Positions 42,208 to 64,000 of a stretch of 64,000 nucleotides of DNA are shown in pieces (position 1 is the first letter of the stretch; every line of letters starts with the position of its first letter). Location of the stretch: contig JBGULQ010000008.1 of the NCBI GenBank assembly GCA_045116295.1, positions 13,147 to 77,146 of the forward strand, in the 5' to 3' direction. The translations under genes and the position numbers were made by a program. The notes under the pieces were generated by a model. It ran no database searches and was not told where the DNA came from. It worked only from the letters and a program-made list of their open reading frames with translations. The DNA comes from Alphaproteobacteria bacterium (GTDB lineage: Bacteria; Pseudomonadota; Alphaproteobacteria; RF32; CAG-239).

Positions 42208-42318
42208 AATATCCTTATATTATAAAATTCTTATATACAATGTTATTACAAAAACGTGTTGACATCACTACTAAAGGTAGTATTTTATTTGTAGATAAGT
42301 TGGTTGGAGATTAATAAT

Positions 42319-42819: not shown

Positions 42820-42835
42820 TTTTAGATTTGCAAAA

Positions 42836-42868
42836 ATAAAGCTGGTATTTTTTAGTACCAGCTTTTAT
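42836..42868 (+). terminator. intrinsic terminator after the HTH gene, immediately upstream of metK
   Basis: aaagctggta-tttttta-gtaccagctttt. Confidence 0.7.
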
Positions 42869-42891
42869 TATACCTCAAAATGGAGGAAATT

Positions 42892-44744: not shown

Positions 44745-44746
44745 CA

Positions 44747-44779
44747 AAACAGCCTTTCTTCAAGAAAGGCTGTTTTTGT
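44747..44779 (+). terminator. intrinsic terminator after trmB
   Basis: acagcctttct-tcaa-gaaaggctgt followed by TTTTGTTT. Confidence 0.8.
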
Positions 44780-45054
44780 TTAATTCTGATAGCGAGCATT
44801 ATTCAGTAAGGTCAAACAAAGCTTGCGCTTCATCAGATAAATTCCACTGCTTTCTACTCATTCAGCGCCACTTTGCGTTCATCAGCCGGAAGTTTGAAAA
44901 AGCTCCAACTGTGCCTCCTCGCTTGGTAAGGGACGGTAACGTTTTATATAGTACAAGCACAGCACTATTAAACATCTATCGGAAGGAAGTTAAACAGCTC
45001 AAATTCCTCCTCTGCAGATAAAGAATTGTGCCCATATGATGCTGATATATATGT

Positions 45055-45090
45055 AATAAAAAAGACCTCACGAGCCGGAGGTCTTTTTTT
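45055..45090. terminator. bidirectional intrinsic terminator
   Basis: aaaaaagacctc-acgagccg-gaggtcttttttt. It could stop the minus-strand gene ending at 45108, or any plus-strand transcript of the 44.8-45.05 kb spacer. Confidence 0.75.
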
Positions 45091-45107
45091 GTATGCAGCC
45101 GAAACGA

Positions 45108-45869: not shown

Positions 45870-45980
45870 TTTTATTGTTTCCTTTAATCAAAAATTAAAA
45901 CTATTTGTAGTTTAATGCAGATGAAGATTTTTGCAACAGTTATAATTTTTTTTGTAGCACAAATGTGTACTGGAGGAAAA

Positions 45981-46448
45981 ATGGATTTTTATTATAGTCG
46001 TAAAAAATTGTTCGGATTGTTTGTATTGAGCCTAATTGTTTTATTTGTTGCTGCATTCGTTGCTCGAGTTTTGGGAATGAGTTCCGGCGTTACGACAGTA
46101 ATTGTATTTTGTCCGATTTTGTTTGTGCTGGTTTCATACTTTTTATGGATGTTTCCGAGACGTCTTGCGCATATTGATGAAAATTCAATCCAAATTGATC
46201 ATTCTGTTCCTCTGATGTGGAAAGATGTTGTTGCTGCACGTAAGATTGTTAATAAGCATATGTGCGGAAAAAGTATCGTTGTATTTGATTTGAAACCAAA
46301 GGTCGTTTATCCGCTGACTTTTATGCAAAGTTTTTGCCAATCAACTAAGTTTACAGCGTTTTCTATTCCTTTGTATGCAATGAAAGAAAAAGATCAAGTT
46401 GCAATCTGCAAAGAAATCAGCAAACATTGTAAGCTGAAGGAAGATTAA
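45981..46448 (+). CDS. hypothetical membrane protein
   Basis: The ATG at 45981 follows GGAGG. The product is 155 aa, with 2 TM segments and then a small soluble domain. Confidence 0.5.
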   Translation: MDFYYSRKKLFGLFVLSLIVLFVAAFVARVLGMSSGVTTVIVFCPILFVLVSYFLWMFPRRLAHIDENSIQIDHSVPLMWKDVVAARKIVNKHMCGKSIVVFDLKPKVVYPLTFMQSFCQSTKFTAFSIPLYAMKEKDQVAICKEISKHCKLKED

Positions 46449-47062
46449 TTAATTGAATTGATCCAACTGATGATTTTGTTTTCTTCCTCTTGGGCGTATT
46501 TATCAGATATGTTATTGAATGCCGCATGAGGGCGTAATTTGGCATTTTGAACCATACGTTCAAAATCAATAAAGAAGCTACCGTAATTGCTTCCCTGGGT
46601 GGAAAAAGGCACGACTTTTTTGGTCTTGAAATCTGCTTTTTGAAGAAAAGCAAGTAACGGTGTTGCCGGGGCATACCACCACACCGGTCCGCCAACAAAT
46701 ATGGTGTCATATTTTGAAAAATCAGGCATTTTGCCGCTAAGCTCAGGATATTTTTTTGAAGTCAGCTGCTGACGAGCTTTAATATAAAAAGATGTATTGA
46801 GAGTGATGTCTTCGGCGGTTTTGATTTCGTATAATTCTCCTTTAGTATATTTTGCAATTTTTTCTGCAATGGCTTTAGTGTGTCCGCTTAAAGAGAAATA
46901 TACAACCAATGTGCGACCAGTCTTAGCATTTGGCTTAACGGAGGATGAATATTTAGCCATTTCATGTTTGTTTTTCTGAGCGACCTTATATAAATGTATT
47001 CCACTCCCCAAAGCTACAAATAAGGCAACTATAATTAAAACTGAAATTATGCTCTTAATCAT
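46445..47062 (-). CDS. membrane-anchored flavodoxin-like protein
   Basis: 205 aa with LVVYFSLSGHTKAIAEKIA and DTIFVGGPVWWYAPATPLLAFL motifs. Confidence 0.75.
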   Translation of the reverse strand: MIKSIISVLIIVALFVALGSGIHLYKVAQKNKHEMAKYSSSVKPNAKTGRTLVVYFSLSGHTKAIAEKIAKYTKGELYEIKTAEDITLNTSFYIKARQQLTSKKYPELSGKMPDFSKYDTIFVGGPVWWYAPATPLLAFLQKADFKTKKVVPFSTQGSNYGSFFIDFERMVQNAKLRPHAAFNNISDKYAQEEENKIISWINSIN

Positions 47063-47186
47063 CTTATCCTCACAATTAAATTTTTATATTGTTCTGTATA
47101 TACAATAAATATTTTGTTGATACCAATAATAATTGACATTAAATCACATAAATTTCCGGCAGTCGATACTGACTGCCGGATTGTGG

Positions 47187-48005
47187 TTATACAGATAAGA
47201 CTTCTGATTTGGCTTTTATAAAGAAATAGACAGCTTGGTTAATCGGAGTTACGTGAGAGCCATTATATAATCCGCTCGAAACACTGACCGAACTGGTACG
47301 TCCTTTGGTCGGGGTAGTACTCGAGCCATTAAGACGATATGCAACTGCGTGAGTTCCTGATGCTCCACCTTCTTGGCATAAATAGTTATTGGCATCAATA
47401 TTAACGCTATCTGATCCACCGGCTTTGGCACCTGCCAATAAGTGGTAGTGGCTTGGAACAGCAGGAAGACTTTCTGCCTGAGTTGTCTGAATATCGGTCG
47501 CAGAATTGCCTCCAAGCCCTCTCAAAAATTTGCCGCGATAGTCCGGTACATTAAAGGTTGTGACACCATTTCCGGCACCAAATTTGGTGCCAATAAGGTT
47601 ATATAGCTCAGGATAACTTTCTCTTTCTACTTCTTGTCCGTCACACAAAAGCCAATTGCCATGGTTGGCTGATTGTGCAGAGGCCTTGATATCGCCAACC
47701 GGCTGTAAAGCATTAATTATTGACACGACATTGCTTCCAACTCGACTGCTCATGCTATCAACTTGACTTTTAGTAACTACGTCACCGCTCAGTAAAGCAT
47801 TGCCGACATTTTTAATACGGTGTCCGCCCATATTGATATCGCCCTGCATGGCAACACGTCCGTCACGCAAGAATGTTTCGTTAAAGCCGGAAGCAAAATT
47901 ATCATCCTCTTCATCGGCATGATCTGAAACAATGTCGATATCATTGAGACGATCTTGTTCCCAGTTATGAACTCTGGTAAATTTTCCTTGTGAATCAAAA
48001 GGCAT
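47187..48005 (-). CDS. phage tail-collar (MdpB-like) fibre protein, orphan
   Basis: 272 aa with MGGHRIKNVGNALLSGDVVTKSQVD (a fibre shaft motif) and NWLLCDGQEVERESYPELYNLIGTKFG..TFNVPDYRGKFLRG (the Phage_Tail_Collar motif). Confidence 0.8.
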   Translation of the reverse strand: MPFDSQGKFTRVHNWEQDRLNDIDIVSDHADEEDDNFASGFNETFLRDGRVAMQGDINMGGHRIKNVGNALLSGDVVTKSQVDSMSSRVGSNVVSIINALQPVGDIKASAQSANHGNWLLCDGQEVERESYPELYNLIGTKFGAGNGVTTFNVPDYRGKFLRGLGGNSATDIQTTQAESLPAVPSHYHLLAGAKAGGSDSVNIDANNYLCQEGGASGTHAVAYRLNGSSTTPTKGRTSSVSVSSGLYNGSHVTPINQAVYFFIKAKSEVLSV

Positions 48006-48008
48006 TTG

Positions 48009-48083
48009 TTTTCTCCAATAAAAAAACCGCCCATTTTACGAGCGGCAGGTTAATAAAAAAGCGGAAACTTATCGTTTCCGCCA
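48009..48083 (-). repeat. leader repeat copy A: two tandem intrinsic-terminator hairpins followed by RBS and ATG of the tail-collar gene
   Basis: A 57-nt core (ccgcccatt...tttccgcca) is identical to 51461-51517. The minus strand reads GCGGAAAC-GATAA-GTTTCCGC-TTTTTT, then CCGCTC-GTAAAAT-GGGCGG-TTTTTT, then TTGGAGAAAA..ATG. Confidence 0.85.
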
Positions 48084-48114
48084 GGGTTAGTAGCTTTGTC
48101 TTTTTTAAATAACT

Positions 48115-48429
48115 TTATTTGTGTTTCCAGTTATACATAGTATATAAAGGTCTTTGACAAGTACATGAAATTGGTGAATCTATTATATTCCATATACGAG
48201 GATGCCAATTAAACATGAGAGATATTTGCATACAAAAATAAATAAACAGCATACCAATAAATATATATTGTACATCCCTATTATGGTACCAAAACCATAG
48301 TCCGCAAAGAGATAATGTCATAGTATAGAGTACGTGATTACAAAAACTATAGCTCCATCCCCTGTATAAGTAAGCTATTAAGACAGTAATCAGACATCCG
48401 ATGTAAAAGGCTAATGTCAGCTTCTTCAT
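48115..48429 (-). CDS. small 3-TM hypothetical protein
   Basis: 104 aa and Trp/Tyr-rich. Its ATG overlaps the stop of an upstream 37-codon ORF (ATGA). Confidence 0.55.
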   Translation of the reverse strand: MKKLTLAFYIGCLITVLIAYLYRGWSYSFCNHVLYTMTLSLCGLWFWYHNRDVQYIFIGMLFIYFCMQISLMFNWHPRIWNIIDSPISCTCQRPLYTMYNWKHK

Positions 48430-48539
48430 TTTTCAAACCTACTACTCGAAAACAAATAAGCTTCTTGATCAAAAAAACTATAATTAGCAAACAAATAACC
48501 TAAAGACAAACCGATTATAAAATATATTACCTTTCTCAT
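48426..48539 (-). CDS. 37-aa single-TM peptide (not in the ORF track)
   Basis: My own translation is MRKVIYFIIGLSLGYLFANYSFFDQEAYLFSSSRFEK*. It is translationally coupled (ATGA) to the 104-aa ORF. Confidence 0.4.
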   Translation of the reverse strand: MRKVIYFIIGLSLGYLFANYSFFDQEAYLFSSSRFEK

Positions 48540-48620
48540 GCACGACCTCTATTAAAATAAATAATATTTTGAAGTTAATATTTTATTTATTTTGACCAAA
48601 TTTATCTTTGTAACGGACTT

Positions 48621-48809
48621 TTATTTGATCCATTCATTATTAACGGTATTAGGCACATCTGTTGTTTGTAATTCATTTACAGATTTTTCGGGATTTTGGT
48701 TGGGGGTGATGTAATAATATTCACTTTCCCCGGGTTGAGGATTTTGCCTTTGTATCGGGTGTTTTCCGTTAAAAACACCTTGTAAATATTCATAGGTTGT
48801 GTCAGGCAT
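48621..48809 (-). CDS. 62-aa protein consisting almost only of the shared MPDTTYEY N-terminal module
   Basis: Its first 51 aa differ at 3 positions from the first 51 aa of the gene at 51440. The DNA at 48657-48830 has 7 mismatches against 51288-51460 by my count. Confidence 0.55.
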   Translation of the reverse strand: MPDTTYEYLQGVFNGKHPIQRQNPQPGESEYYYITPNQNPEKSVNELQTTDVPNTVNNEWIK

Positions 48810-48855
48810 TGATTTTCTCCAACAAAAAAAATCAATTCGGGGGCTCTCTTATGGA

Positions 48856-49194
48856 TTACATGTTTGCATCAATTCGCGACGTGTTATAATAATCGAATAT
48901 GTGGGGCCAGTATATAAATGTCCCCAACAACGATAGTAAAAGAAAAATCTCGAATGATATTATATAATATTTTTTGAACACGGGAGATTTATATTTGTAA
49001 TGGATAAATTTTGTTATACATGCAAATAACAAAGAAAAATCAAAAATTACAAAGAAGATATTAAACGGGAATTTGCCAAGGTAGATTTCTATTTGGAGAT
49101 CAAGCAGAAATAAGCTGTTAAGAAACAAGAAACATCTCATATATCTCATTATTTCTCTAAAAACCACACCCTTATCTTTTTTGAAAAATTTCAT
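48856..49194 (-). CDS. small 3-TM protein, paralogue of 50315..50671
   Basis: 112 aa. MKFFKKDKGVVFREIMRYMRC... aligns over its full length with MKFFKKDKGIVFRNFIRDARC... Confidence 0.6.
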   Translation of the reverse strand: MKFFKKDKGVVFREIMRYMRCFLFLNSLFLLDLQIEIYLGKFPFNIFFVIFDFSLLFACITKFIHYKYKSPVFKKYYIISFEIFLLLSLLGTFIYWPHIFDYYNTSRIDANM

Positions 49195-49240
49195 TTGTGC
49201 TTCCTATCAGTCGTCTACATTTTTTAACAATAATAATAAA

Positions 49241-50278
49241 TTACTTCTGACCTTTGGTATTAAAATATGTTCCGCATTTGGAATATTTACCAGCATAATT
49301 TAAAATATAATTGAAAGGACAATCCGATGAAACAAAAAAGTCAGCATCTTCATCAATAACTTTGCAAGCGTCTTTCAAGCTAACTCGTTTCTCATCTTCT
49401 TTGGTTAATTTTACCTTATCCTTATCAATGTTTTTTTCTTCCGCAACTTCACTGATAATCATATGTTCTCTCAATGCTTCAATAAAATCTAACGGAGCCT
49501 TAAAACGTTCTTCTTGCGTCCCCCAATCAGCCCTTTTGTAAAAATCGTTAATATCCGTATATTTTTCATCAGAAGCTCTTGCCAATAGAGCCATTTGGTC
49601 ATTTTCCGCTATTCCTATTTCTTCTTTGAATTTTTCTCTCACTTTATTCGGATAATTAACCATTTCATATCCTTGGGCTTTGCAAAACTCCGGATACGCA
49701 TAAGTATGACGATATATCTCACCCACAGCAAGCCCTAAATGAAAAGCAGATCTATTCGTATCAGGCATATATTTATCTTTCACTTCAAACATACCAAAGA
49801 TTCCCAGAAAAACCAAAATTGTAAAAATGATAGGGAATCGTGTTAGAAAGCTTCTTTGAGGTTCATCAACATTTTGTTTTGCAGGTCGTAAAGCAAGAAT
49901 TAAATGGGTAATCGCAGTAATACCTGAAATCAGATATATACTCCATCTGATTTCAGGGAAAAAGGATATATCAACATCAAAAGTTAATGCCATTGTATAA
50001 AGTAAGAGAACATTAGCCAGAATATACCATGTTCCTGAACTACCAAAAGACCTGGAACGTTTTTGTATTAATGCAGTCAAACAATATATCACAAGGAAAA
50101 ATACGATAATGTATGATATAAGCTCAAAAACACAAAACTTAGTTATTATCCCAAGCAACAAAACAGCTGTTATGTAAGGTATACGATAAATAATTCCTTT
50201 GTAAGAAAAAAATAGTTTTAAAATATTCCCGGAAAATAAAATTTGATTTGCTTTTTCAAAAAACTGTTTAAATTGCAT
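49241..50278 (-). CDS. hypothetical protein: N-terminal 4-5 TM domain plus a roughly 170-aa soluble C-terminal domain
   Basis: I prefer the ATG at 50278, after AAGGAGAAAG. The product is 345 aa. I recognise no family. Confidence 0.55.
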   Translation of the reverse strand: MQFKQFFEKANQILFSGNILKLFFSYKGIIYRIPYITAVLLLGIITKFCVFELISYIIVFFLVIYCLTALIQKRSRSFGSSGTWYILANVLLLYTMALTFDVDISFFPEIRWSIYLISGITAITHLILALRPAKQNVDEPQRSFLTRFPIIFTILVFLGIFGMFEVKDKYMPDTNRSAFHLGLAVGEIYRHTYAYPEFCKAQGYEMVNYPNKVREKFKEEIGIAENDQMALLARASDEKYTDINDFYKRADWGTQEERFKAPLDFIEALREHMIISEVAEEKNIDKDKVKLTKEDEKRVSLKDACKVIDEDADFFVSSDCPFNYILNYAGKYSKCGTYFNTKGQK

Positions 50279-50314
50279 GATCTTTCTCCTTGTGGCAATC
50301 CTATAATACATTAT

Positions 50315-50671
50315 TTATTCATCAAAAAGAGGAACGTATCTATTATCTAGTTTGGAATATGTAAGGTATGATAATGTATGTTTGCAGTAAAGTACAAAAC
50401 CTATTATTGAAAGCAACATGAGTACCTGACTAAATAAGACATAGTATCTTTTTAGTTTTCTGATTTTGAATTTGCGATATATAAATTTGGTCAAACAAGA
50501 ACCGATTAACATAAAATCAAAAAAATAAAAGAATGTATCCCACACATTATTTTGATGATGTAATTCTATTTGATAAATAATTAGGAATATATTATTTATC
50601 CATAAGACACATCTAGCATCTCTTATAAAATTTCTAAAAACTATACCTTTATCTTTTTTAAAAAATTTCAT
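50315..50671 (-). CDS. small 3-TM protein, paralogue of 48856..49194
   Basis: 118 aa with the same N-terminal MKFFKKDKG motif and the same topology. Confidence 0.6.
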   Translation of the reverse strand: MKFFKKDKGIVFRNFIRDARCVLWINNIFLIIYQIELHHQNNVWDTFFYFFDFMLIGSCLTKFIYRKFKIRKLKRYYVLFSQVLMLLSIIGFVLYCKHTLSYLTYSKLDNRYVPLFDE

Positions 50672-50707
50672 TGGTGTCCCTGTGTAAATGAGTGATTTAA
50701 CAATTTA

Positions 50708-51440
50708 TTATTTCTTTCTGTAGTTGCTTATAGAATTATGTAGAAGATTCTTGCCTTCTCCCGCTAATTTATTGATTATTGAGCGTATTATAGGACGTTC
50801 AACATTGTTGCCAAAAGCTTTCATTCCTCCATATGTACCTAATCCGCCACTAATTCCGCCTAGCGATGCATCAACAATAACATCTTTGGCATTGTTATTC
50901 TCATTATTACCATATCCGTCTAATGCCGACATTGCAATATTATTTTTATATATTTGTGATGATTTTACCCACCATGGTGCGGTTTTGGAATATTTGAATA
51001 GGGGAACACGGTTAGCTATTGAACCAACTCCCTCCGCAATGCGCGTATGCTATCGGATGTTCTTTGCGGGTTTGTTTTAGGATATTGCGTCTATTGTCAC
51101 GTGCTTCTTTATATCCACGACTAAAAGCTTCCCCGATGCTTTCTTGTTTATTATTGCCCAACATATTGCCTACCGCATACCCTGCCCCTTTTATTCCGCC
51201 TTCAATCTCATCGGCAAAACCGGCAGAAAGACCGTTTAGGGCGGCACTTGTTAATCCTTCGGATGTTTGTAGAATATTATTAGATATATCTGTTGTTTGT
51301 AATTCATTTACAGATTTTTCGGGATTTTGGTTGCGGGTGATGTAATAATATTCACTTTCCCCAGGTTGAGGATTTTGTCTTTGTATCGGGTATTCTCCGT
51401 TAAAAACACCTTGTAAATATTCATAAGTTGTGTCTGGCAT
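50708..51440 (-). pseudogene. glycine-zipper-rich protein with the MPDTTYEY N-terminal module, split by a frameshift near 51012-51049
   Basis: The first frame, 51440..51012, gives 142 aa. The second frame is open from 51049 down to 50708: HTRIAEGVGSIANRVPLFKY...ASLGGISGGLGTYGGMKAFGNN... I traced the two frames by hand and they overlap by about 38 nt. Confidence 0.6.
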
Positions 51441-51443
51441 TGA

Positions 51444-51517
51444 TTTTCTCCAACAAAAAACCGCCCATTTTACGAGCGGCAGGTTAATAAAAAAGCGGAA
51501 ACTTATCGTTTCCGCCA
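51444..51517 (-). repeat. leader repeat copy B: the same tandem terminator hairpins, followed by RBS and ATG of the MPDTTYEY gene
   Basis: See copy A. Outside the identical 57-nt core there is one substitution and one A-run length difference. Confidence 0.85.
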
Positions 51518-51537
51518 TAGTATATGTTCTTTGTAAT

Positions 51538-51572
51538 GTTCCAGGGTTCAAATCCCGTCCGCTTCTATACCA
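51538..51572 (+). other. degenerate tRNA 3'-half-like fragment (T-arm, acceptor and CCA), inverted relative to tRNA-Lys
   Basis: gttCCAGGGTTCAAATCCCgtccgcttctataCCA compares with the tRNA-Lys 3' half tCCAGGGTTCGAATCCCtgcgcgcctaCCA. The T-stem no longer pairs fully. Confidence 0.5.
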
Positions 51573-51573
51573 A

Positions 51574-51606
51574 TAAAAAAACCGCCCCAAAGGACGGTTA
51601 TTTTTA
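51574..51606 (-). terminator. intrinsic terminator directly after tRNA-Lys
   Basis: The minus strand reads AACCGTCC-TTTG-GGGCGGTT followed by TTTTTT. Confidence 0.7.
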
Positions 51607-51607
51607 T

Positions 51608-51684
51608 TGGTAGGCGCGCAGGGATTCGAACCCTGGACCCACTGATTAAGAGTCAGTTGCTCTAGCCAACTGAGCTACGCACCC
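51608..51684 (-). tRNA. tRNA-Lys (anticodon CUU), CCA encoded
   Basis: The reverse complement is GGGTGCG-TA-GCTC-AGTTGGCTA-GAGC-A-ACTGA-CTCTTAA-TCAGT-GGGTC-CAGGG-TTCGAAT-CCCTG-CGCGCCT-A-CCA. I folded the cloverleaf by hand. The acceptor stem contains two G-U pairs. Confidence 0.9.
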
Positions 51685-56406: not shown

Positions 56407-56847
56407 TTATTTGATGTCATTATAGAACAGATGATGGGTAGTTTCATAGCAAGGACTATGATGTTTTGCCCATATTGGAAATATGCTGCGGGTGTGATAA
56501 AAGGTTGCGTTATTGGTAAAATCTATAAGTCTTCCGCTAATGGCCTTATCTGCAATTTTTAGGCATAAACAAAATATTTTATCGTTTGAATTTAATTTGA
56601 GAATTTTTGAAAAATTTGGATCGGTCTTGTTCCAACAGCTGAATTGGTATTTTTTCAGGCATGTTTGCTTGAGATCGGGTATTTTAATGCCGTCATCAAG
56701 ACGATAACCGGTAAACCATTTGCGGGCATTGAAGCGGTTCACAATCACACAGGCAACCGCTTCCATACCTTCAATACCATCGCCCCGCGCCTCTCCCCAT
56801 AGTGTAGCGGCCATTATGTGCAAATCATCCCAATCATCAGGAGACAT
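56407..56847 (-). CDS. endolysin, SleB/CwlJ-type cell-wall hydrolase (Hydrolase_2)
   Basis: 146 aa with the AATLWGEARGDGIEGMEAVACVIVNR motif. Confidence 0.8.
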   Translation of the reverse strand: MSPDDWDDLHIMAATLWGEARGDGIEGMEAVACVIVNRFNARKWFTGYRLDDGIKIPDLKQTCLKKYQFSCWNKTDPNFSKILKLNSNDKIFCLCLKIADKAISGRLIDFTNNATFYHTRSIFPIWAKHHSPCYETTHHLFYNDIK

Positions 56848-57121
56848 TTTTGCCTCCTTTATGTTTGCAATTTAACAAAAGATCAAGTTTGGTTTCAAAA
56901 CTATCAAATTTGCTTTCAAGTTTTGCCAACATTATGTTTTGCTGATTTTGCATCATGATTGCCGAGGCTGTTTCTTTATCAGCTTTATCTATGCGTTGCA
57001 GCACACCTTCCATGCGTTCTTCCAGACGGCCTTTCCAAGACCCGAGTTTAACCAAATTCCACAACATGCCGGCTAAGGCAGCTATACCGGATATTCCGCC
57101 GATTGTGTTAATAAAATCCAT
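56837..57121 (-). CDS. holin-like protein (1 TM plus coiled coil)
   Basis: The ATG at 57121 follows GGAGGTGAT. The product is 94 aa with MDFINTIGGISGIAALAGMLWNLV at its start. Confidence 0.5.
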   Translation of the reverse strand: MDFINTIGGISGIAALAGMLWNLVKLGSWKGRLEERMEGVLQRIDKADKETASAIMMQNQQNIMLAKLESKFDSFETKLDLLLNCKHKGGKNVS

Positions 57122-57160
57122 TATCACCTCCATAAAAAAAGGGGCAGAAACTGCCCCCTG

Positions 57161-57850
57161 TTAAAAACCAATTGCTAACCAAAACCACTTACCCAAGTCA
57201 CCACTGCCAAGAGTAAAACCTGTTAGAGAATGAGTAATTACAGAGGCTATGGAAAAGTTTGATGGAGCAAGCGCATCAACTATGTGCGTCAGTGATATTG
57301 AATAGGATGTAGTTTCAAACGGAATCTCATATGTGCAAGTTGTTCCAGAGCTATCATCAAGTTCAATAATTCCCCATTGTATTGTCAAACCACCGGAATA
57401 CTTGACATGATTTGTACCTTGACTAACAATGTTGCCACCGTTAACAAAGGCTGTAGTGGCAACATTGGGAGATAAATCGTTAAGCGAGGGAGTTACGGCT
57501 TGTAATGATCCTTCAAATATCTTATCTCCGCTTATAGTTTGTTCGGTGTCAGTTGTGACATAAGTCTGTTCATATTCGGCAATAGTATTATTTATGTCAT
57601 TGATGCCTGCTTGTGTAGCATTATTAATAGATGTAATTGATTGAGTAGTTTCAATGTCAATAACTTGTTTTTGGTCATTTACATAGTCAGCAAGATCCGG
57701 TTTAGATACCGCAGCAACATAATTGTCAATATCGTCTCGTCCATATTTAACGTATTGGATATCTGCGGAAGTGTTTAAGGCCGCTTCATCCTGAAAGTAA
57801 ACATCAAAATCTTTTGAAGCGTAGTTTTCAAAAATATTAAGTTCGGTCAT
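57161..57850 (-). CDS. phage tail fibre protein
   Basis: The ATG at 57850 follows AAGGAG. The product is 229 aa with the ISGDKIFEGSLQAVTPSLNDLSPNVATTAFV fibre motif. Confidence 0.7.
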   Translation of the reverse strand: MTELNIFENYASKDFDVYFQDEAALNTSADIQYVKYGRDDIDNYVAAVSKPDLADYVNDQKQVIDIETTQSITSINNATQAGINDINNTIAEYEQTYVTTDTEQTISGDKIFEGSLQAVTPSLNDLSPNVATTAFVNGGNIVSQGTNHVKYSGGLTIQWGIIELDDSSGTTCTYEIPFETTSYSISLTHIVDALAPSNFSIASVITHSLTGFTLGSGDLGKWFWLAIGF

Positions 57851-57851
57851 T

Positions 57852-58199
57852 TTACACTCCTTCAGTAATTTGGAATATTGCATTTTGACTTATATCCTGC
57901 GGAAAGACGGTATGCACATTGCCACTGGCAAAAATAATTTTTATGTTGGCTTCATAAGAACCAACTGCAAGGCGTGAATGTTGCGGAGTAATTTTGATTA
58001 AGGCCTGACCATTGCCGGCATCAATGATGTCTCCTGCAATGTGCAGAACAGTGGTTTCGTCTTGGTCTTTGACATCAAGATATATGTTTGCACCGGATAT
58101 ATCCATTACTGATCCGTCTTTATGTTTGAAACGCATGGCAATATCAAAGCTATCGCCTTGTCTAACCAAAATTCCGTTTGGTGTCATTGTTCCTGTCAT
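57852..58199 (-). CDS. small Ig-like (BppU_N-like) virion protein
   Basis: The ATG at 58199 follows AGGAG. The product is 115 aa with GILVRQGDSFDIAMRF...YEANIKI beta-sandwich-like periodicity. Confidence 0.45.
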   Translation of the reverse strand: MTGTMTPNGILVRQGDSFDIAMRFKHKDGSVMDISGANIYLDVKDQDETTVLHIAGDIIDAGNGQALIKITPQHSRLAVGSYEANIKIIFASGNVHTVFPQDISQNAIFQITEGV

Positions 58200-58203
58200 G
58201 GCA

Positions 58204-59109
58204 TTACTCCTTGTTTGGCATTTGGCAGGCAAGGTCATATCTCAGTAGGAGGTATCCGTCTGCATCTTCATAGACTGCTTCAGGAATTATTTTAAGAACA
58301 TCTTGTGCCAGTAACCCAATTTGCGGAGTTGTACTTCCCTTGAAATTGAAACAATAAACCGTTAGCCCATTGTCAAGTTTTCCGACCGGTTTAATGTTTT
58401 CTTTTAATCTTACATCTGAAAACAACATAAGACCGACCTGAGCGGCAGTACCAAGTGCGTCTCTTCCTGCTTGAATACGTGCATCAGTGTTACTCTGTTT
58501 GGCGGCTGCAATTCTACTATCTGCGCCATGTTGAATATTGTAGATATTCATAGCATTATCATAGCCTGAATGTCCAAGCTGCAACTGTGAAATAATCTGG
58601 CTTAAATAATTGTTCTTTGCATTGTTACCAAAATTGGCAACCAATGCATTGTTGTTTAAACTTTGATTGAAAGCGTTTTGACCGCTCAATACTGATTGAT
58701 AAGCTGCTTGATTATAAGCATTGTTTTGACTGTTTTGCAGATTACTCATTGCACGGTTATAGGCATCGCTACCAACTGTAATACCCTGATTTTGAAGGCG
58801 GGTTTCGAGGTCATTGGTTTGTTGAGCAAATTGCGGTCTGAGACGATCTGTATATGCCTGATAAGTCGCATTTTCGGCACGTTTGCGAGCCTCATCAGAA
58901 CCATCGATTTCGTATGTATAGTTATTCATATTGTTCATATTTTGGCTCATGTTATAGGCGTTGTTGAGCAAATTTTGAACAGTATTATCGTAATTTGTTG
59001 TGTTATAATTTTGCAAATAATTTAAGATGTTACTCTCTGATTTATATGGGGAAGTACTGGCATTGCCGGCACCCAATAGTTTTCCAACTGCTTTAAATCC
59101 GCTAGACAT
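58204..59109 (-). CDS. Q/N-rich virion protein with a C-terminal S74 intramolecular-chaperone (autoproteolytic) domain
   Basis: 301 aa. The C-terminus is FSDVRLKENIKPVGKLDNGLTVYCFNFKG...IGLLAQDV..IPEAV. Confidence 0.7.
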   Translation of the reverse strand: MSSGFKAVGKLLGAGNASTSPYKSESNILNYLQNYNTTNYDNTVQNLLNNAYNMSQNMNNMNNYTYEIDGSDEARKRAENATYQAYTDRLRPQFAQQTNDLETRLQNQGITVGSDAYNRAMSNLQNSQNNAYNQAAYQSVLSGQNAFNQSLNNNALVANFGNNAKNNYLSQIISQLQLGHSGYDNAMNIYNIQHGADSRIAAAKQSNTDARIQAGRDALGTAAQVGLMLFSDVRLKENIKPVGKLDNGLTVYCFNFKGSTTPQIGLLAQDVLKIIPEAVYEDADGYLLLRYDLACQMPNKE

Positions 59110-59566
59110 TTTTTTCTCCTGTTGATTGATGATTGATAAATTTACATTCTTTGGCCAACATGCCTAAAACAAGTGCATCTTGGTCATCTGAAAAATATTG
59201 ACGCATTTTGCCCTCAAGAACAAAACCACATCTGGTTGCTAATGAAATAGAGGCATGATTATCCGGACGTATAAGGGCATTGAGCCGACGACATTTTAGA
59301 ACATTGAATGCAATGCCAAAAATTTGTTTTAAGCAAATCTTTGAGCACCAATGTTTATCCGTGGTATATATACTGATCCATGCCGTATCATTTAACTGAT
59401 AATCGCTAAAAACAACTCCTCCGACAATTTTATTTTGGTGTATAATTGCAAAAGAATAGCCTTTTAACATTTCTTCCGGTGACAAACCTAAACCGAATGA
59501 TACATAACGCGCAATATATTCGCTTTGATCATATACCAATTTAGACAATGCCGGCTCCCTGTTCAA
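59102..59566 (-). CDS. GNAT (RimJ/RimL-like) N-acetyltransferase embedded in the tail module
   Basis: 154 aa with ..CRRLNALIRPDNHASISLATRCGFVLEGKMRQYF... It overlaps both neighbouring genes. Confidence 0.7.
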   Translation of the reverse strand: MNREPALSKLVYDQSEYIARYVSFGLGLSPEEMLKGYSFAIIHQNKIVGGVVFSDYQLNDTAWISIYTTDKHWCSKICLKQIFGIAFNVLKCRRLNALIRPDNHASISLATRCGFVLEGKMRQYFSDDQDALVLGMLAKECKFINHQSTGEKNV

Positions 59567-61088
59567 AACGAAAACCGGTATTATACCACTCTATAAGATT
59601 GCCCTTAGTTTTGGTCTTAAAAACTACTGATGCCTTAAAACCGGTTGCACTATTAGCAATCCATTGACTATGTGTGATACCTTTTAAGGTTGACCATTTG
59701 GTACCAATTTGATGTTCAAGACTACTCCATTTACTCTGATTCCATTTAGTGCCGTTATGATTACCCATGTTTTCGGAATATTCACGTTCACTGTCATCAA
59801 AATCCATATTGGCATATATATTCAAACTAAAAACCGCAGAACTTTTGGTTCGCGGATTTAACATTTGTATTTTTTTAAGATTGGGTGTACCAAGTGAACA
59901 ATAAGCTTGATGGACATTGCCGCAAATAGCAATTCCGTTATCAGAATGTCCTTCATCAAATAAAAATACACCGCCGTCAGAACCAAAGTATAGTCTTCCT
60001 TCATATAAACACCAACAAAAAGAATATATATTGGTAAATCTGCACCAAGCTCCGGAGCTCATGTTGATTACATGTTGCTCAAATTGTCCGCCGACAGGAA
60101 CATTGAATAAGACATATCCACCTCGTGGATATATAATACTCTGCCAACCGGATATATTTTTTCCGGTTTTGACACGAGATAAAACCAAACCACGAATTTT
60201 ATCACTGTATGCGGCTTTACCGGTTGAACTTTCTCCGAGAGGTAAAACAGATGAAAGAGGGACATAACCTTCTTCACAGATGACAATTATGTCGCCCTGA
60301 TATTGCATTGTACAGTGTCTTCCGATCGGACGGCTGATAAAATATTTGCCACGTAATGACCAGTTATCAGCGTTGCCGGGATTGGTACCGGAATAAACCA
60401 AAACCTCTCCTTCGGTAGTAATAAAAACAGTAAGGTCGTCAATACCCTGCCCGCCGTCCTGCGTCCAACTTGCTATGGCGGCAATGCTTCCACCACGGGT
60501 GACCAATGTTGATAAATCGACACTGCTCAGTACTCCCTCAACCTCTCCGACGCCTGATGAATACCAATATGTCAAAGAATCTTTTTCAATATAAAAAACA
60601 CGTTGTTTTGAGACTGTTAGATTACATAACTTTTTGATATCAAGTCCCTCTCCGGCAATGTCAGTATTTTTCCATGTCCAAACGTCTTCTTCATTTTTAT
60701 AGTAGGTTTGGGGAAAATCCATACCATTGACCAGAAGTAACCGATTTCGAAACTGAACATAGTTCCAATCATTATAATTTAAGTTATCTACATCTACCGT
60801 ATAGTTGCCAGATGTGATATCAATAATTTTTCCATTGGCGGCAGCAAATAGTCGACTATTTTGTGAAGAAGAAAAAGTAATCAAACTTTCGATTTTGAGT
60901 CCCAGTCCTTCCAATGCATACATTTTGTATCCGCCACGCAAACATACATTAGTTTCAGACGGATAATAATTATCCATGGTAATAGCATCGGTTTCAGACA
61001 TATTATCAAAACTGTCGCGGCAATTAAGTCCGCCTATCGGTGCCGGCAAAATATAGTTCTGCGATCGGCTAATTGCTCTGTTTAACAT
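59541..61088 (-). CDS. tail tubular protein B-like (T7 gp12-like nozzle), short form
   Basis: 515 aa. The N-terminus ..PIGGLNCRDSFDNMSETDAITMDNYYP.. resembles the T7 gp12 start (..KGGISQQPDILRYPDQG..). It occupies the position right after a gp11-like gene. Confidence 0.45.
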   Translation of the reverse strand: MLNRAISRSQNYILPAPIGGLNCRDSFDNMSETDAITMDNYYPSETNVCLRGGYKMYALEGLGLKIESLITFSSSQNSRLFAAANGKIIDITSGNYTVDVDNLNYNDWNYVQFRNRLLLVNGMDFPQTYYKNEEDVWTWKNTDIAGEGLDIKKLCNLTVSKQRVFYIEKDSLTYWYSSGVGEVEGVLSSVDLSTLVTRGGSIAAIASWTQDGGQGIDDLTVFITTEGEVLVYSGTNPGNADNWSLRGKYFISRPIGRHCTMQYQGDIIVICEEGYVPLSSVLPLGESSTGKAAYSDKIRGLVLSRVKTGKNISGWQSIIYPRGGYVLFNVPVGGQFEQHVINMSSGAWCRFTNIYSFCWCLYEGRLYFGSDGGVFLFDEGHSDNGIAICGNVHQAYCSLGTPNLKKIQMLNPRTKSSAVFSLNIYANMDFDDSEREYSENMGNHNGTKWNQSKWSSLEHQIGTKWSTLKGITHSQWIANSATGFKASVVFKTKTKGNLIEWYNTGFRFEQGAGIV

Positions 61089-61776
61089 ATGCTATTCCTC
61101 CGTCGGATATACTGTCGGTCATGCCTCCTAAACTTATATCTTTATTAGCTAATGTTGAGCCAAAACGTTTACGACATTCGGTTTCATACTCACGATATTC
61201 TTCATCATAAGCAATGCCGTTTCTAGCCTGAAGACGCCATCTGATTGCAAGTTTGACAAGATATTCATCAAAAACAGGAATATCCGTATCTTTGGTAATT
61301 TCTGTTTTTTCGGTGAACAGGCCATTTTCGTACGCGACAACAGAAGAACGATATTGAAAAACAATTTTTATTCCCTCAGGAGGCGGAGTTAAAAAACGAA
61401 ACATCGAATTTTGAATTTTAAATTTAATTGTATTATCATCGTTATGAAAATATTTTTCATGCTGCCATTGTTCGGGACGAATTGAACCAATAATTTTTTC
61501 ATTGCCGTCTTTTATATAGACCGTATTGTTTAATAACTGAAAAAAATCAGGGCAAAATGCTTTAATTAGATAATCAGTTTTATTTTTAGAGGTTATCAAT
61601 TCTCCGTCCTTGGTAAGCTCTTGCCAATCACCATAGCGCAACAGACCATTGAGCGCATCTTTAGCAATGCTCTGAAAAACGCGATTGTTTTGACTGCTTG
61701 TAGTAAATAAGCTTTGCGGTTCTTGGACGCAAGCCAAATTAGCTGCGTCTTGGCATATTTCGAGTATGTTTTTCAT
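61069..61776 (-). CDS. tail tubular protein A-like (T7 gp11-like adaptor)
   Basis: 235 aa. It shows similarity in layout to gp11: N-terminal ..ICQDAANLACVQEPQSL.. and C-terminal ..YLVKLAIRWRLQARNG..EEYREYETECRKRF. Confidence 0.4.
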   Translation of the reverse strand: MKNILEICQDAANLACVQEPQSLFTTSSQNNRVFQSIAKDALNGLLRYGDWQELTKDGELITSKNKTDYLIKAFCPDFFQLLNNTVYIKDGNEKIIGSIRPEQWQHEKYFHNDDNTIKFKIQNSMFRFLTPPPEGIKIVFQYRSSVVAYENGLFTEKTEITKDTDIPVFDEYLVKLAIRWRLQARNGIAYDEEYREYETECRKRFGSTLANKDISLGGMTDSISDGGIAYVKQSN

Positions 61777-62323
61777 TTTTGCTCCTTATTTTTTTTGATT
61801 GTTGCAAATTATCAACTTTCGTTTCTAACTCTTTGATACGTTGTTGGTATTCTTGTTCTTTTTTTTGCCACTCAACAAGAGAGAGATTGCCTTTGGCTTG
61901 TTCAACAAACTTAATTGCAAGTTCGCGTTCTTTGCTGACACCAAGCTCTTCTGCATGTGAAGCATCTAGTTTGGTTAAATGCTCAACAGTATAAATTCCA
62001 CGAACCTTAAGACCGGCAATTTCAGCTGCATCTAAAAATGCAAATTGCTCTAACGGAGTGCCATCTTCAACACATTTTTTAGCTTGTTTATATCGAGCAT
62101 ATTCATTGGGAAAACGCCTTATTTTATCTGGTGTTGCCGGCTGATTATAAACTTCGGAGCTGTTATCTTTTATGCGTATTTCACAAAAACAAACCAACTT
62201 AAATTTTGGCAACCCGTCTTTGGTAATTTGAGAAGTTTTTATTGCCTGATCATAAAAACGTGCAATTACCCCCTCCTCAGAGTTGCCGTTATGTATCACT
62301 TTTTCAAAAGTTGAAAAATCCAT
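61739..62323 (-). CDS. phage hypothetical protein (coiled-coil C-terminus)
   Basis: 194 aa. It lies between the capsid terminator and the gp11-like gene. Confidence 0.5.
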   Translation of the reverse strand: MDFSTFEKVIHNGNSEEGVIARFYDQAIKTSQITKDGLPKFKLVCFCEIRIKDNSSEVYNQPATPDKIRRFPNEYARYKQAKKCVEDGTPLEQFAFLDAAEIAGLKVRGIYTVEHLTKLDASHAEELGVSKERELAIKFVEQAKGNLSLVEWQKKEQEYQQRIKELETKVDNLQQSKKIRSKNEKHTRNMPRRS

Positions 62324-62335
62324 TACTGTCTCCTT

Positions 62336-62368
62336 TATAAAAAAGCGGCGTCATTACTGACGCCGCTC
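62336..62368 (-). terminator. intrinsic terminator immediately after the major capsid gene
   Basis: The minus strand reads GCGGCGTCA-GTAA-TGACGCCGC-TTTTTTATAAAGGAGACAGTAATG. Confidence 0.8.
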
Positions 62369-62384
62369 ATTTTTGTTTTATTGA

Positions 62385-63368
62385 TTATCCTTCATTTGAT
62401 GACGTATCAGTGAAGACTACACCTTGCAAAGCGGCATTTGACATAGTCAAGTTACCGGCCCAACCGATGATTTTATAAATTGCATCTTGGTTGACTGACA
62501 TTCTCTCACCACCGATTACTTTCATGTTGCGGTCTTTATGAGTACGCAAATACAAATAATTGGTATTAAGAAAATACATTTTGCCATCGGGGCAGCAACC
62601 ACCTTGACCACCATCACATACAACATCTGCACCCTTAAAGCGCAAGGCTTCAAAACCGGCATCTGCAAGTCTTGTATCAACAAAACGCTGCTGAGCAGTT
62701 AATGACTGTTCAAACAATGAATACCACTCATCACCGGTGACAATCAAATCCGGCTTATCAATGCCGCGTGTCAATGACATATACATTGAATCCATTGCTG
62801 AACGCAGACTATCAGATGTAATCGTGCCGGTAAGTTCTTTGGCTTTGTTACGCCAAAACTCGTTACCTGCGGTTGCACGATTGATGTTGCCTACGGTGCC
62901 ACTGCTTGGAAAATCAGCTACCAACAAACTCAACCCACCAATTGATTTGCCGTTATAACCTGTACCATCACTGTATACAGCTTCGGCCATTTTATTGCTC
63001 ATAGTCTTAACTGCGTTTTCAATGCGCTTTTCAAACAAATCTATCATTTGATATTGACCAGAATTTTTGAGCAATTCTTCACCGGAAATGGCAACAGGAA
63101 CAGCACATAATTTTAATGAGTATTCGGCTGCGCTGAACAGTTGTTTTGGGGTATATGTAATTGTGTCATATCCTGAATACCAAGACAAGTCACCTTCTCC
63201 GTATTCAAGTTCTTCAATAATTTTTGAACCGCCGGCAAGCATGCGGTTGTGTCCTTTTTCTTGCAGACGTTTTAACAATGCATTGTTGTTAGAAACAGCA
63301 TCTGCAAGCTGGCCGCTACGGCTGGTAAGTGTGGTTGTAAAAATATCATTATAATCGTTATTAGCCAT
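62385..63368 (-). CDS. phage major capsid protein
   Basis: 327 aa. I assign it from its position after the scaffold-like gene, its size, the strong terminator behind it, and general likeness to T7 gp10-class capsid proteins. Confidence 0.6.
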   Translation of the reverse strand: MANNDYNDIFTTTLTSRSGQLADAVSNNNALLKRLQEKGHNRMLAGGSKIIEELEYGEGDLSWYSGYDTITYTPKQLFSAAEYSLKLCAVPVAISGEELLKNSGQYQMIDLFEKRIENAVKTMSNKMAEAVYSDGTGYNGKSIGGLSLLVADFPSSGTVGNINRATAGNEFWRNKAKELTGTITSDSLRSAMDSMYMSLTRGIDKPDLIVTGDEWYSLFEQSLTAQQRFVDTRLADAGFEALRFKGADVVCDGGQGGCCPDGKMYFLNTNYLYLRTHKDRNMKVIGGERMSVNQDAIYKIIGWAGNLTMSNAALQGVVFTDTSSNEG

Positions 63369-63390
63369 GTTTTTATCCTTCTATAATTGA

Positions 63391-64000
63391 TTATTGTTCA
63401 TCCAATTGTGCAAATTGGCGTTCAAGAATTTGTCTTGTGGTAAGACCTGTGTAATCATCATCATTGCTACGATGTCCGGTTACAGAAAAAGCAGCCTCTT
63501 TGGCTGCTTTTGCTTCTTCAGCTTTTGCCAATAATTCAGCCTCATGTTTGTTCTTGTCGTCAAACGCAGTACGCAATGCAGATACACTCTCAATCAGCAT
63601 ATTCATGCCGTTTAGCAATGCATCAGTCTTGGCACTGTTTTCGCTACAAATTTGGGCGGTATTGCTATCAGAACTTTGTCCCATATCAATACCATATACG
63701 CGAGCCAAAAATTGCAAAACTGCCGCCGGATTTTGCTCAATCAGATCCTCTGCCAAAATAAGATGTTCAATCCACTCTCTGGCGTTTTTGAACCCTCTTT
63801 TTGAGCCTTTTGAGCTGAAAGCATCATCAATAAAACGCCGAGCGTTGACCTCGGCGTTTAATTCTTCAAGCGATTTTGAAAATTCGCCTTCTCGTTCATA
63901 AAGATATTTGCGAACTTCAAATGGCAATCCTTTAAACAATTCGCGAATTTCTCCGATATAGGCTTCGGGAGCTTCTGCAAACTGTTCATCAGAAACAATA
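63391..64000 (-). CDS. scaffolding-like protein (partial; frame stays open to the window edge)
   Basis: It has an Ala/Glu-rich helical C-terminus (..HEAELLAKAEEAKAAKEAAF..). The M shown at 63939 in the track is a TTG codon, and the frame continues upstream (..IVSDEQFAEAPEAYIGEIRELFKGL..). Confidence 0.5.
   Translation of the reverse strand, partial: IVSDEQFAEAPEAYIGEIRELFKGLPFEVRKYLYEREGEFSKSLEELNAEVNARRFIDDAFSSKGSKRGFKNAREWIEHLILAEDLIEQNPAAVLQFLARVYGIDMGQSSDSNTAQICSENSAKTDALLNGMNMLIESVSALRTAFDDKNKHEAELLAKAEEAKAAKEAAFSVTGHRSNDDDYTGLTTRQILERQFAQLDEQ

Follow-up and report, generated by a model that had tools for sequence, protein, structure and literature searches.

The N-terminal domain that directs trafficking is the basis on which polymorphic toxin loci are sorted into classes. 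In the MuF toxins of temperate phages, variable C-terminal toxins follow an N-terminus of phage virion origin and an immunity gene lies downstream (Jamet et al. 2017, PMC5576092; Zhang et al. 2012, PMC3482391). MuF toxins occur in the gut microbiome with Firmicutes as hosts, and delivery by the phage particle has been proposed for them (PMC5576092). In the orphan arrays of contact-dependent inhibition (CDI), Rhs and type VI secretion system (T6SS) loci, for instance those of Vibrio cholerae, a conserved 5' region provides homology for recombination and the content differs at the strain level; new pairs displace old effectors, of which the immunity genes are kept and sometimes only the N-terminus remains (PMC5361080). 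Here we analyze a locus that resembles both, an AT-rich stretch of about 4.5 kb (positions 47063-51607) in a 64,000-nucleotide piece of an alphaproteobacterial genome (assembly GCA_045116295.1, contig JBGULQ010000008.1; hereafter the window). We estimate a probability of roughly 0.7 that this stretch, located between the terminator of tRNA-Lys(CUU) and a flavodoxin gene, is a polymorphic array of effector-immunity cassettes derived from phage virion genes. A cassette would comprise a promoterless leader, an effector gene with a shared N-terminal module (N-module) and an exchangeable C-terminus, and one or two genes for small inner-membrane proteins.

Compared to the MuF toxins, the scaffold of the island effectors is a module of 22-55 amino acids followed, in the effector that we call toxA, by the N-terminus of a PHROG-5880 protein, which belongs to the ejection block of the phage instead of the DNA-packaging module that provides MuF. 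The host is an alphaproteobacterium rather than a Firmicute, and the genes are arranged in tandem at a place outside the phage, together with orphan immunity genes and a displaced fibre gene. Compared to the CDI, Rhs and T6SS arrays, the window contains no T6SS, CdiB or Rhs/PAAR/VgrG parts, the effectors measure only 136-243 amino acids, and a leader with two hairpins is part of the repeat unit. A polymorphic toxin-immunity array with orphan immunity genes is thus well known in kind. What appears to be new, judged by homology and gene order, is an N-module outside any known family, orphan toxA and immunity families, a scaffold from the phage ejection block, the position of the array outside a prophage and its coupling to a displaced fibre.

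The first-pass annotation of the window, made from the letters alone, had placed nine minus-strand open reading frames (ORFs) between the flavodoxin gene (46445-47062; PF12682, E 2e-23) and tRNA-Lys and had recognised a family for one of them. The ORF list and the domain search agree with this count: all nine lie on the minus strand and only the 272-aa ORF has a Pfam family, the Collar domain (Table 1), while the others have no match in Pfam, NCBIfam, PADLOC or PHROGs, apart from a weak one to phrog_5880. Two corrections apply to the list. The ORFs given as 192/142 aa and 74 aa are halves of a single gene, and the 62-aa ORF is a deletion remnant. The higher AT content, earlier judged by eye, holds upon computation. 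The GC content is 34.5% over 47063-51607 and 31.0% over 48006-51011 versus 38.7% for the whole window, and in the windowed profile that had been proposed the island is the 4.5-kb stretch with the lowest value (mean 38.6%, sd 2.0). The membrane-protein genes, with 24-32%, account for this low value, and neither toxA (approximately 40%) nor the collar gene (43.7%) is AT-rich.

The loci of relatives (L-numbers) were recovered with the flanking gene for a 754-aa U32 peptidase, which yielded 80 loci, all from metagenome-assembled genomes of uncultured gut or rumen Alphaproteobacteria. In the sister species L003 (79% U32 identity), tRNA-Lys is directly followed by the flavodoxin gene, with a terminator and around 100 nt in between. 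Since this site is empty, the 4.5-kb stretch is, by this comparison, an insertion relative to L003. The site is occupied by differing arrays in five related genomes, namely the window, L083, L001, L002 and L092. Read from tRNA-Lys to flavodoxin and with the membrane proteins named by their length, the window carries toxA (frameshifted), p118, p345, p112, an N-module remnant, p37, p104 and the collar gene. L083 has the same order, with a short toxA variant in the first place and a variant p118' in the second. L001 carries only an intact 243-aa toxA, p118 and the collar gene. In L002, a short toxA variant B and p112 are followed by a second effector (tox2), a 42-aa transmembrane (TM) protein, p118, a Tlde1 effector, p37, p104 and the collar gene, and L092 carries tox2 (frameshifted), the 42-aa TM protein, p118 and the collar gene. 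Counted by gene content, these five genomes thus carry four different arrays, or five when variant and frameshifted copies are treated as distinct, and the accessory status proposed for the stretch is borne out. The comparison across relatives and the family searches had been named beforehand as the places where this proposal could fail; the nine genes show no conserved synteny and none was assigned to a housekeeping family.

The flanks of L092 are 98-98.5% identical to the window at the nucleotide level, so the difference between their arrays is a strain-level one. By contrast with their flanks, single cassettes are shared at high identity between more distant genomes: toxA-p118 of the window is 95.7% identical to that of L001, of which the flanks are only 76-87% identical, and the window shares p112 (97.2%) and p118 (99.5%) with L002, of which the flanks are 80-86% identical at the nucleotide level. 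Cassette identities that far exceed those of the flanks point to horizontal exchange of cassettes. The number of intact N-module genes per genome is 3, 1, 1, 0 and 0, and orphan putative immunity genes as well as effector remnants, which mark the diversity of polymorphic toxin loci, are present in the arrays. The identity of the window to L001 and L002 is 76-80% on the flavodoxin side (39444-48086) and 85-87% on the U32/phage side (51537-63998). Given these unequal flanks, a recombination boundary may coincide with the island. Lateral transduction of the ABC/U32 segment, in which the proteins are 98-100% identical, was considered and dropped as the nucleotide identity of that flank reaches only 85-87%.

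The N-module consists of the first 22-55 residues, which the effector genes have in common and after which their C-termini differ. The first-pass annotation had seen two genes with a common N-terminus, and they correspond to a direct repeat of 183 nt (48647-48829 and 51278-51460) that is 95% identical. L002 carries the same module (92-100% identical) in three fusions, with toxA, with the tox2 domain and with the Tlde1 domain. It has no match in Pfam, NCBIfam or PHROGs and no signal peptide by eye, and the window contains no secretion genes. A word-indexed search among 5.8e9 proteins returned only three clusters with the N-module; scans of metagenomes returned two loci, one of which is a duplicate of L001, and IMG/VR none. 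The effectors (136-243 aa) have no signal peptide and a Pro/Gln/Asn-rich N-terminus. A double-glycine leader with a C39 ABC exporter was also considered and rejected: Asn occupies position -2, and the adjacent ABC protein is without a peptidase domain and belongs to the core (80 out of 80 loci).

In the window, a single additional base near 51043, which L001, L083 and L002 lack, shifts the frame of toxA by +1 and makes the 142-aa and 74-aa ORFs one split gene; the glycine-rich gene of the first-pass annotation is its C-terminal half. The intact allele (L001:12791-13524) encodes 243 amino acids. All variants agree in the first 54 residues of the C-domain, and every difference falls within the last 60, which include a GxxxG-rich stretch. 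The short forms (L002, L083, L082) retain only 22 N-terminal residues and join two sites that both encode HPI. When the toxA C-domain was compared exhaustively by HMMER with 1.84e9 representatives, its own cluster was the only match, a sequence search against the PDB returned no match, and the AlphaFold2 (AF2) model of toxin P0038 was unusable, with a predicted local distance difference test score (pLDDT) of 40.

The middle part of toxA reveals its background. The 142-aa ORF of the window matches phrog_5880 with E 1.1e-4. Residues 26-204 of the intact L001 protein align with the N-terminal part of a phage ORF of 558 aa at 32% identity (pairwise E 5e-16; E 2e-6 in the search of the phage database), and hhalign aligns toxA columns 48-200 to the N-terminus of PHROG-5880 with a probability of 98.8% (E 4e-17). 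Eleven IMG/VR contigs carry toxA homologues, which are PHROG-5880 proteins of 540-660 aa (phrog_5880 E 8e-20 to 8e-27). In the podovirus contigs, the order is head, tail-tube-like, 'DNA ejection protein' (phrog_4287), a protein of about 510 aa, the PHROG-5880 gene and the tail fibre. With its 243 aa and a homology limited to the N-terminal third, toxA is, as far as homology indicates, a phage-derived and truncated homologue of podovirus PHROG-5880 proteins. It stands outside the phage structural operon, yet still upstream of a fibre gene: in the island, a PHROG-5880-like gene is still the neighbour of a fibre gene, with only p118 intervening in L001. Homology and gene order thereby tie an N-module locus with three clusters in 5.8 billion proteins to the ejection-protein/tail-fibre module of podoviruses.

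The second N-module gene of the window has lost its effector domain. Around 440 nt encoding the whole Tlde1 domain are deleted between stretches of microhomology, with the junction ...GAATGGATCAAA|TAAAAGTCCG..., which is identical in L083. A stop codon arises at the junction, after which the old gene's 3' end (encoding KVRYKDKFGQNK) continues out of frame. The intact allele, L002:14527-15192, matches PF10908 (E 5.8e-9, 36.8 bits against a cutoff of 30.1); the 62-aa ORF of the window does not match PF10908 because the domain has been deleted. The earlier remark that no known toxin domain is visible thus holds for the ORFs of the window, the Tlde1 domain being intact only in the relative. Tlde1 is an antibacterial effector that targets peptidoglycan, and the catalytic motif of Tlde1a is HXX14-17-(S/T)HGCh, with H121, S128, H129 and C131 (PMC9638812). 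The L002 allele reads LHGSYNGYGSAGCI: by eye, the first His, the Ser and the catalytic Cys are kept, the second His is replaced by Ala and the spacing is one residue longer. The likeness to Salmonella Tlde1/Tldi1 (PMC9638812) lies in PF10908, the catalytic Cys with an upstream His in the ancestor of the remnant and the immunity-like pair that follows. The differences are the deletion in the window, the motif H-x7-SAGC instead of (S/T)HGC in the relative and a context without T6SS. In addition, the putative immunity proteins are polytopic or single-pass and have no family match in the libraries searched, Tldi1 itself not having been compared. Every effector of the array is therefore missing or inactive in the window, one by frameshift, one by deletion and one by absence.

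The C-domain of tox2 also occurs in phage lysis regions. Stand-alone homologues of 137-142 aa with a conserved YYHRLxMC motif are found at L007:7045-7604, in L006 and at L008:12963-13376(-). In L006 and L007, the homologue directly follows a phage lysin gene and precedes a 47-aa TM protein, which mirrors tox2 and the 42-aa TM protein of L002.

Arrays with other modules occur elsewhere in the clade. Another species carries a polymorphic array between the U32 gene and tRNA-Lys (L005:12360-15037), in which two effectors share a different N-module (MSMYSQYKSNSGYHIGDDG...) with GH108 (E 3e-15) and SLT (E 5.5e-5) as C-domains. A signal-peptide protein is encoded after one of them and a polytopic membrane protein after the other. 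Across the clade, the region around the U32 gene and tRNA-Lys is a hotspot for such cassettes. L070 (2051-3238) and L071 encode a 395-aa protein with a distant N-module (36% identity), GH108 and PG_binding_3, with signal-peptide proteins encoded alongside on the opposite strand.

The small membrane proteins downstream of the effectors differ for each effector C-terminal domain and occupy the position expected for immunity genes. Tail variant A of toxA is paired with p118, the 82%-identical tail A' of L083 with p118' (78% identical to p118) and variant B with p112 (42% identical). This co-variation of the toxA tail and the membrane protein is the main argument for specific effector-partner pairs, in which p118 would be the putative cognate immunity or exclusion protein of variant A. 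Like the N-module, p118 was found in only three clusters among the 5.8e9 proteins of the word-indexed search. In the window, p112 and the p37-p104 pair stand without an effector and the effector of p118 is broken; p104 in particular is a putative orphan immunity gene here. Five membrane proteins had been proposed for the stretch. TM segments are called by a hydropathy threshold in those of 104, 112, 118 and 345 aa, including one or two in p118 and p112 where a third is visible by eye, whereas the 37-aa protein falls below the threshold and is single-pass by eye only.

The largest of the five, p345, is a single-gene insert. The homology to L001 and L002 breaks off at 50310 and sets in again at 49224, and ATG 50278, after an AGGAGA site, is preferred as a start over that of the 356-aa ORF. 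Its family counts 34 homologues (clusters) at 40-99% identity, which occur as a single-gene insert in unrelated contexts (including L084, L085 and L093). The AF2 model of the C-domain is all-helical (pLDDT >90) with conserved cysteines. As suggested for the ORFs of this stretch, a Foldseek search was run with the model of p345; no PDB match to the C-domain was better than E 2.7. p345 may be an orphan immunity gene.

The collar protein shows the usual pattern of tail fibres, in which a conserved attachment end is combined with a variable receptor-binding region. Compared to in-phage fibres of distant species, its 45 N-terminal amino acids are 73-80% identical and residues 181-225 only 18-29%. 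Overall, it is 40-51% identical to fibres that lie inside phage clusters of distant species between S74 and BppU-like genes. In the window lineage, this slot is empty in the neighbouring podovirus-like element, which has neither a collar gene nor a PHROG-5880 gene, and a collar gene stands at the end of the array instead. From these positions we read the collar gene as the fibre displaced from the neighbouring element. The element is likely the source of the island's fibre and effectors, and perhaps also their partner.

In its full form of about 14.5 kb (L088:3012-17467), the element comprises genes for an S24 repressor, terS, terL, Cpn10-like, portal-like, head, tail, fibre and lysin proteins, and no integrase or replication genes are found in it. 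It lies between TolQRA plus two core genes and an ABC exporter, at the same site in loci with 62-98% U32 identity, and the identities of its proteins roughly follow the divergence of the host U32. A domesticated particle is one possibility for its nature, a site-specific mini-phage another. An unannotated 'Bacteriophage sp.' scaffold from human faeces (MT835830.1, locus L095; 16,998 bp) is collinear with the element from end to end (head protein 75%, terL 77% identical) and has no host flanks, which points to packaging of the element's relatives as discrete genomes of about 17 kb. This scaffold has the collar fibre and no N-module gene, and ends at the lysin gene. The gene transfer agent (GTA) RcGTA has its fibre and spike genes outside the main structural cluster. 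Gene transfer agents (context in PMC9638019) resemble the element as small phage-like clusters at a conserved site without integrase and replication genes and with a fibre encoded elsewhere. They differ as the element is podovirus-like with an S24 repressor and a terminase, the 17-kb virome scaffold suggests that relatives are real phages and no GTA regulators were seen.

Effector and collar genes also share their 5' signals. All of them start with the same T-tract, GGAGAAAA ribosome-binding site and ATGCC, and two terminator-like hairpins precede most copies of the leader. The two copies in the window form a 78-nt repeat that is 91% identical (fold z-score -3.6 for copy 1). Across nine copies, 98% of the cells are paired and the loops are variable, with one compensatory pair (GC:5/UA:4), which is modest evidence that the structure is under constraint. 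An Rfam identity as freshwater-2 RNA, the best match of the leader, was rejected at 29 bits, below the cutoff of 49.9. The tRNA terminator is directly adjoined by the first effector gene in L002 and L083. The best sigma-70-like match in the region (50787-50814) is a candidate promoter of the putative immunity gene p118, and only suggestive as the total of such sites does not exceed that in shuffled sequences. A promoter-like site also lies upstream of tRNA-Lys (51731-51703; promoter scan).

The internal direct repeats and the tRNA-like fragment that had been noticed are both present. The fragment, however, is inverted: 51540-51556 matches the T-arm of tRNA-Lys in 16 out of 17 positions in the opposite orientation and is not called by ARAGORN. 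The 10-mer TTATTGGTAT occurs three times in the window (47120-47129, 48251-48260 and 51567-51576, all minus), each time inside the island, with 0.32 copies expected. Two of these copies are near the island edges; as an att site or a target duplication they are too weak.

Table 1. Positions of the island features and of the neighbouring podovirus-like element in the window.
Feature	Position	Strand	Description
tRNA-Lys(CUU)	51608..51684	-	ARAGORN; Rfam RF00005, 69.8 bits; array begins downstream of its 3' end, same strand
tRNA terminator hairpin	51580..51599	-	3' half and T-tract GGGCGGTTTTTTTATTGG match leader hairpin 2
Degenerate tRNA-like 3' half	51540..51576	+	inverted relative to tRNA-Lys; present in window, L001 and L092, absent from L002 and L083
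Cassette leader, copy 1	51441..51517	-	hairpins 51494-51516 and 51460-51480, T-tract, GGAGAAAA ribosome-binding site, ATGCC
toxA pseudogene	50708..51440	-	ORFs 51012-51440 and 50708-50932; N-module ~51288-51440, PHROG 5880-like region, glycine-zipper-like variable tail
Sigma-70-like site	50787..50814	-	TTGGCA-16-TATAAT, 11/12; inside toxA 3' end, ~115 nt upstream of p118 gene
p118	50315..50671	-	118 aa, ~3 TM segments; follows toxA in window, L001 and L083
p345	49241..50278	-	single-gene insert; 5 TM segments, Cys-containing helical C-domain
p112	48856..49194	-	p118 paralogue (42-43% identity); orphan here, follows toxA tail variant B in L002
Tlde1-type effector remnant	48621..48809	-	N-module kept, ~440 nt with whole Tlde1 domain deleted; from junction mapping
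p37	48426..48539	-	small single-pass membrane protein by eye; first of the pair after the Tlde1 effector in L002
p104	48115..48429	-	2-3 TM segments; second of the pair after the Tlde1 effector in L002
Cassette leader, copy 2	48006..48083	-	two hairpins, T-tract and ribosome-binding site as in copy 1; collar gene follows directly
Tail-fibre gene with collar domain	47187..48005	-	PF07484 E 9e-20; phrog_523 E 1e-20; PDB tail-fibre matches; intact in all five genomes
Terminator hairpin after collar gene	47155..47180	-	terminator scan; homology to empty site L003 resumes just beyond, ~47135
Podovirus-like element, late half	56407..64000	-	head, tail, S74 fibre, BppU-like, Gp53-like fibre and lysin genes

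A working model for such an array can be drawn from these elements. Leader and N-module would provide the homology for swapping, displacement and deletion of cassettes, for which the Vibrio cholerae arrays offer a precedent (PMC5361080). The N-terminal region would direct trafficking, toxA would act on membranes, the Tlde1 L,D-transpeptidase-like effector on peptidoglycan, and the membrane proteins would neutralise their cognate effectors. The effectors would most likely be carried by, or released with, the neighbouring phage-like particle and enter the cells that are recognised by the fibre. Delivery by the particle is favoured because the effectors descend from a virion protein encoded beside a fibre gene, because effectors and fibre gene share a leader, and because the effectors lie on the same strand as the late operon and downstream of it. 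In the window itself, the locus would work, if at all, as an orphan-immunity array with a fibre gene.

A more far-reaching version is that exchangeable chromosomal cargo toxins and a displaced fibre arm the neighbouring integrase-less mini-podovirus-like particle as a weapon for kin discrimination. The N-module or the PHROG-5880-like N-terminus would load the toxins, the collar fibre would select the target cell and the toxin would be ejected into its envelope like an ejection protein, with kin that carry the matching membrane protein surviving. We regard this version as possible, though on balance doubtful. If true, it would be a weapon in the form of a head-containing, short-tailed particle, unlike tailocins, extracellular contractile injection systems (eCIS)/PVC and the prophage-encoded MuF toxins. 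More generally, if the effectors ride phage-like particles, phage-borne delivery would extend from the MuF toxins of Firmicutes to Gram-negative gut bacteria and to another compartment of the virion. The locus supplies candidate families of membrane-acting and cell-wall-acting toxins and of their immunity proteins. It also raises the questions whether the specificity between effector tail and inner-membrane protein reflects immunity or exclusion, and by what means uncultured gut and rumen Alphaproteobacteria distinguish kin from others.

Several observations weigh against an effector-immunity array. Toxicity, immunity and secretion of the island proteins are inferred, and what points to toxicity of the C-domains is the Tlde1 family assignment of one allele, in which SAGC stands where the family has (S/T)HGC (PMC9638812). 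toxA, p118, p112, p104 and the N-module have no characterised homologues in the databases searched, and p345 is found elsewhere without an adjoining effector. The N-module proper (residues 1-47) lies outside the region of phage homology, so that its role as a trafficking signal is a guess. Two terminators and no promoter precede the start codon in the leader, which leaves expression unaccounted for, and the leader covariation amounts to a single base pair. Finally, the frameshift near 51043 could be an assembly error.

The explanation that competes most closely is that the stretch is a module for phage infection and superinfection exclusion (Sie), in which the N-module proteins are ejection (pilot) proteins and virion cell-wall enzymes of the neighbouring podovirus-like phage, the membrane proteins are of the Sie type and stop the cognate ejection proteins of kin phages that arrive, and the collar protein is the fibre of the phage. 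Such exclusion systems include Imm and Sp of phage T4. In phage P22, escape mutations from the inner-membrane protein SieA map to the C-terminal parts of ejection proteins gp16 and gp20 (PMC10883804). The co-variation of our membrane proteins with the effector tails is a close parallel. Exclusion proteins of this kind are likewise small inner-membrane or periplasmic proteins, with specificity for C-terminal regions of phage ejection proteins or virion lysins. Moreover, the N-terminus of PHROG-5880 proteins, the genes of which belong to the ejection-protein block beside the fibre gene, has a homologue in toxA; the element itself is without a PHROG-5880 gene; and GH108 and SLT domains, as virion lysins typically have them, occur in related arrays. 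Known Sie systems, however, are single genes inside prophages, with neither tandem copies nor decayed copies of the target gene alongside. The genes studied here lie outside the phage unit, and the 17-kb MT835830 contains no such gene up to its end at the lysin gene. While the element remains intact, the counts of intact N-module genes drop from three to zero between genomes, unlike those of essential virion proteins, and toxA has 243 aa against 540-660 aa for the PHROG-5880 proteins. Furthermore, Tlde1 is known solely as an antibacterial effector (PMC9638812), and arrays with displaced effectors and kept membrane-protein genes are typical of polymorphic toxin loci (PMC5361080). We therefore consider exclusion unlikely as the function of the array. 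The earlier proposal of a toxin/bacteriocin-immunity or a superinfection-exclusion cassette named both possibilities. The effector/membrane-protein cassettes, Tlde1 in a relative and the co-variation uphold it, and the two readings are not separable on these grounds.

Bacteriocin, integrase-island, integron and lysis-cassette readings fit worse than particle delivery and exclusion. Free bacteriocins of the colicin or pesticin type, with the N-module for receptor binding and translocation, release by lysis and the fibre gene as an unrelated passenger, are improbable. The effectors do have a suitable size, no signal peptide and a Pro/Gln/Asn-rich N-terminus. Colicin M, pesticin and the pore-forming colicins similarly combine killing domains for the wall or the membrane with membrane or periplasmic immunity genes. 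The restriction of the N-module to one lineage, with a 36%-identical version elsewhere, would also fit a fast-evolving domain for receptor recognition. By eye, however, there is no TonB box (DTTYE rather than D/E-T-x-V/T-V) and no TolB box (no DGSGW). The array has no lysis gene, the short forms keep only 22 N-terminal residues, and this reading accounts neither for the leader common to the fibre gene nor for the descent of toxA from a phage virion protein.

A genomic island of the integrase type, now decayed, or an island for anti-phage defence, directed at the 3' end of tRNA-Lys, is very improbable. The position at the tRNA 3' end, the low GC content, the tRNA-like fragment and TTATTGGTAT near both edges are what such an island would show. 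Nonetheless, none of the five genomes has an integrase, the fragment is inverted and located at the proximal border without a direct repeat of the tRNA end, PADLOC gives no hits, and the variation is cassette-wise instead of presence or absence of the whole island. Of the earlier statement that the stretch sits where integrative islands sit, the accessory nature and the location at the tRNA thus stand; an integrative mode does not, as variation probably comes about by homologous exchange and integrase-mediated insertion is not supported without an integrase, of which none is visible among the island ORFs as noted before, or an att site. An integron-like array was rejected since there is no integrase and the hairpins, by eye, have no RYYYAAC/GTTRRRY cores and precede only effector and fibre genes. 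Phage lysis cassettes of holins (the membrane proteins) and endolysins (the enzymes) are hardly credible: cell-wall enzyme domains do adjoin small proteins with 1-3 TM segments and a homologue of the tox2 C-domain lies within a phage lysis region, but the enzyme gene precedes the membrane-protein gene, toxA is no enzyme, there are multiple cassettes that are polymorphic and in part decayed, and the element already has its own lysin region. In general, the locus illustrates that an 'all-hypothetical AT-rich islet' can be decoded through strain comparison alone.

A few features elsewhere in the window were observed as well. A gene at 15269-17485(+) encodes a 738-aa fusion of a family-2 glycosyltransferase and a CDP-glycerol glycerophosphotransferase in the 3-kb stretch with the lowest GC content (approximately 30%) and is probably a variable surface-polymer gene. 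The 1293-aa ORF at 23894-27775(-) has only scattered eukaryote-type Pfam hits, none of them individually significant, and is probably a repetitive or low-complexity protein. Finally, a permuted two-piece tmRNA with the tag peptide ANDNELAPVALAA is present at 19989-20317(+), which is consistent with an alphaproteobacterial origin.

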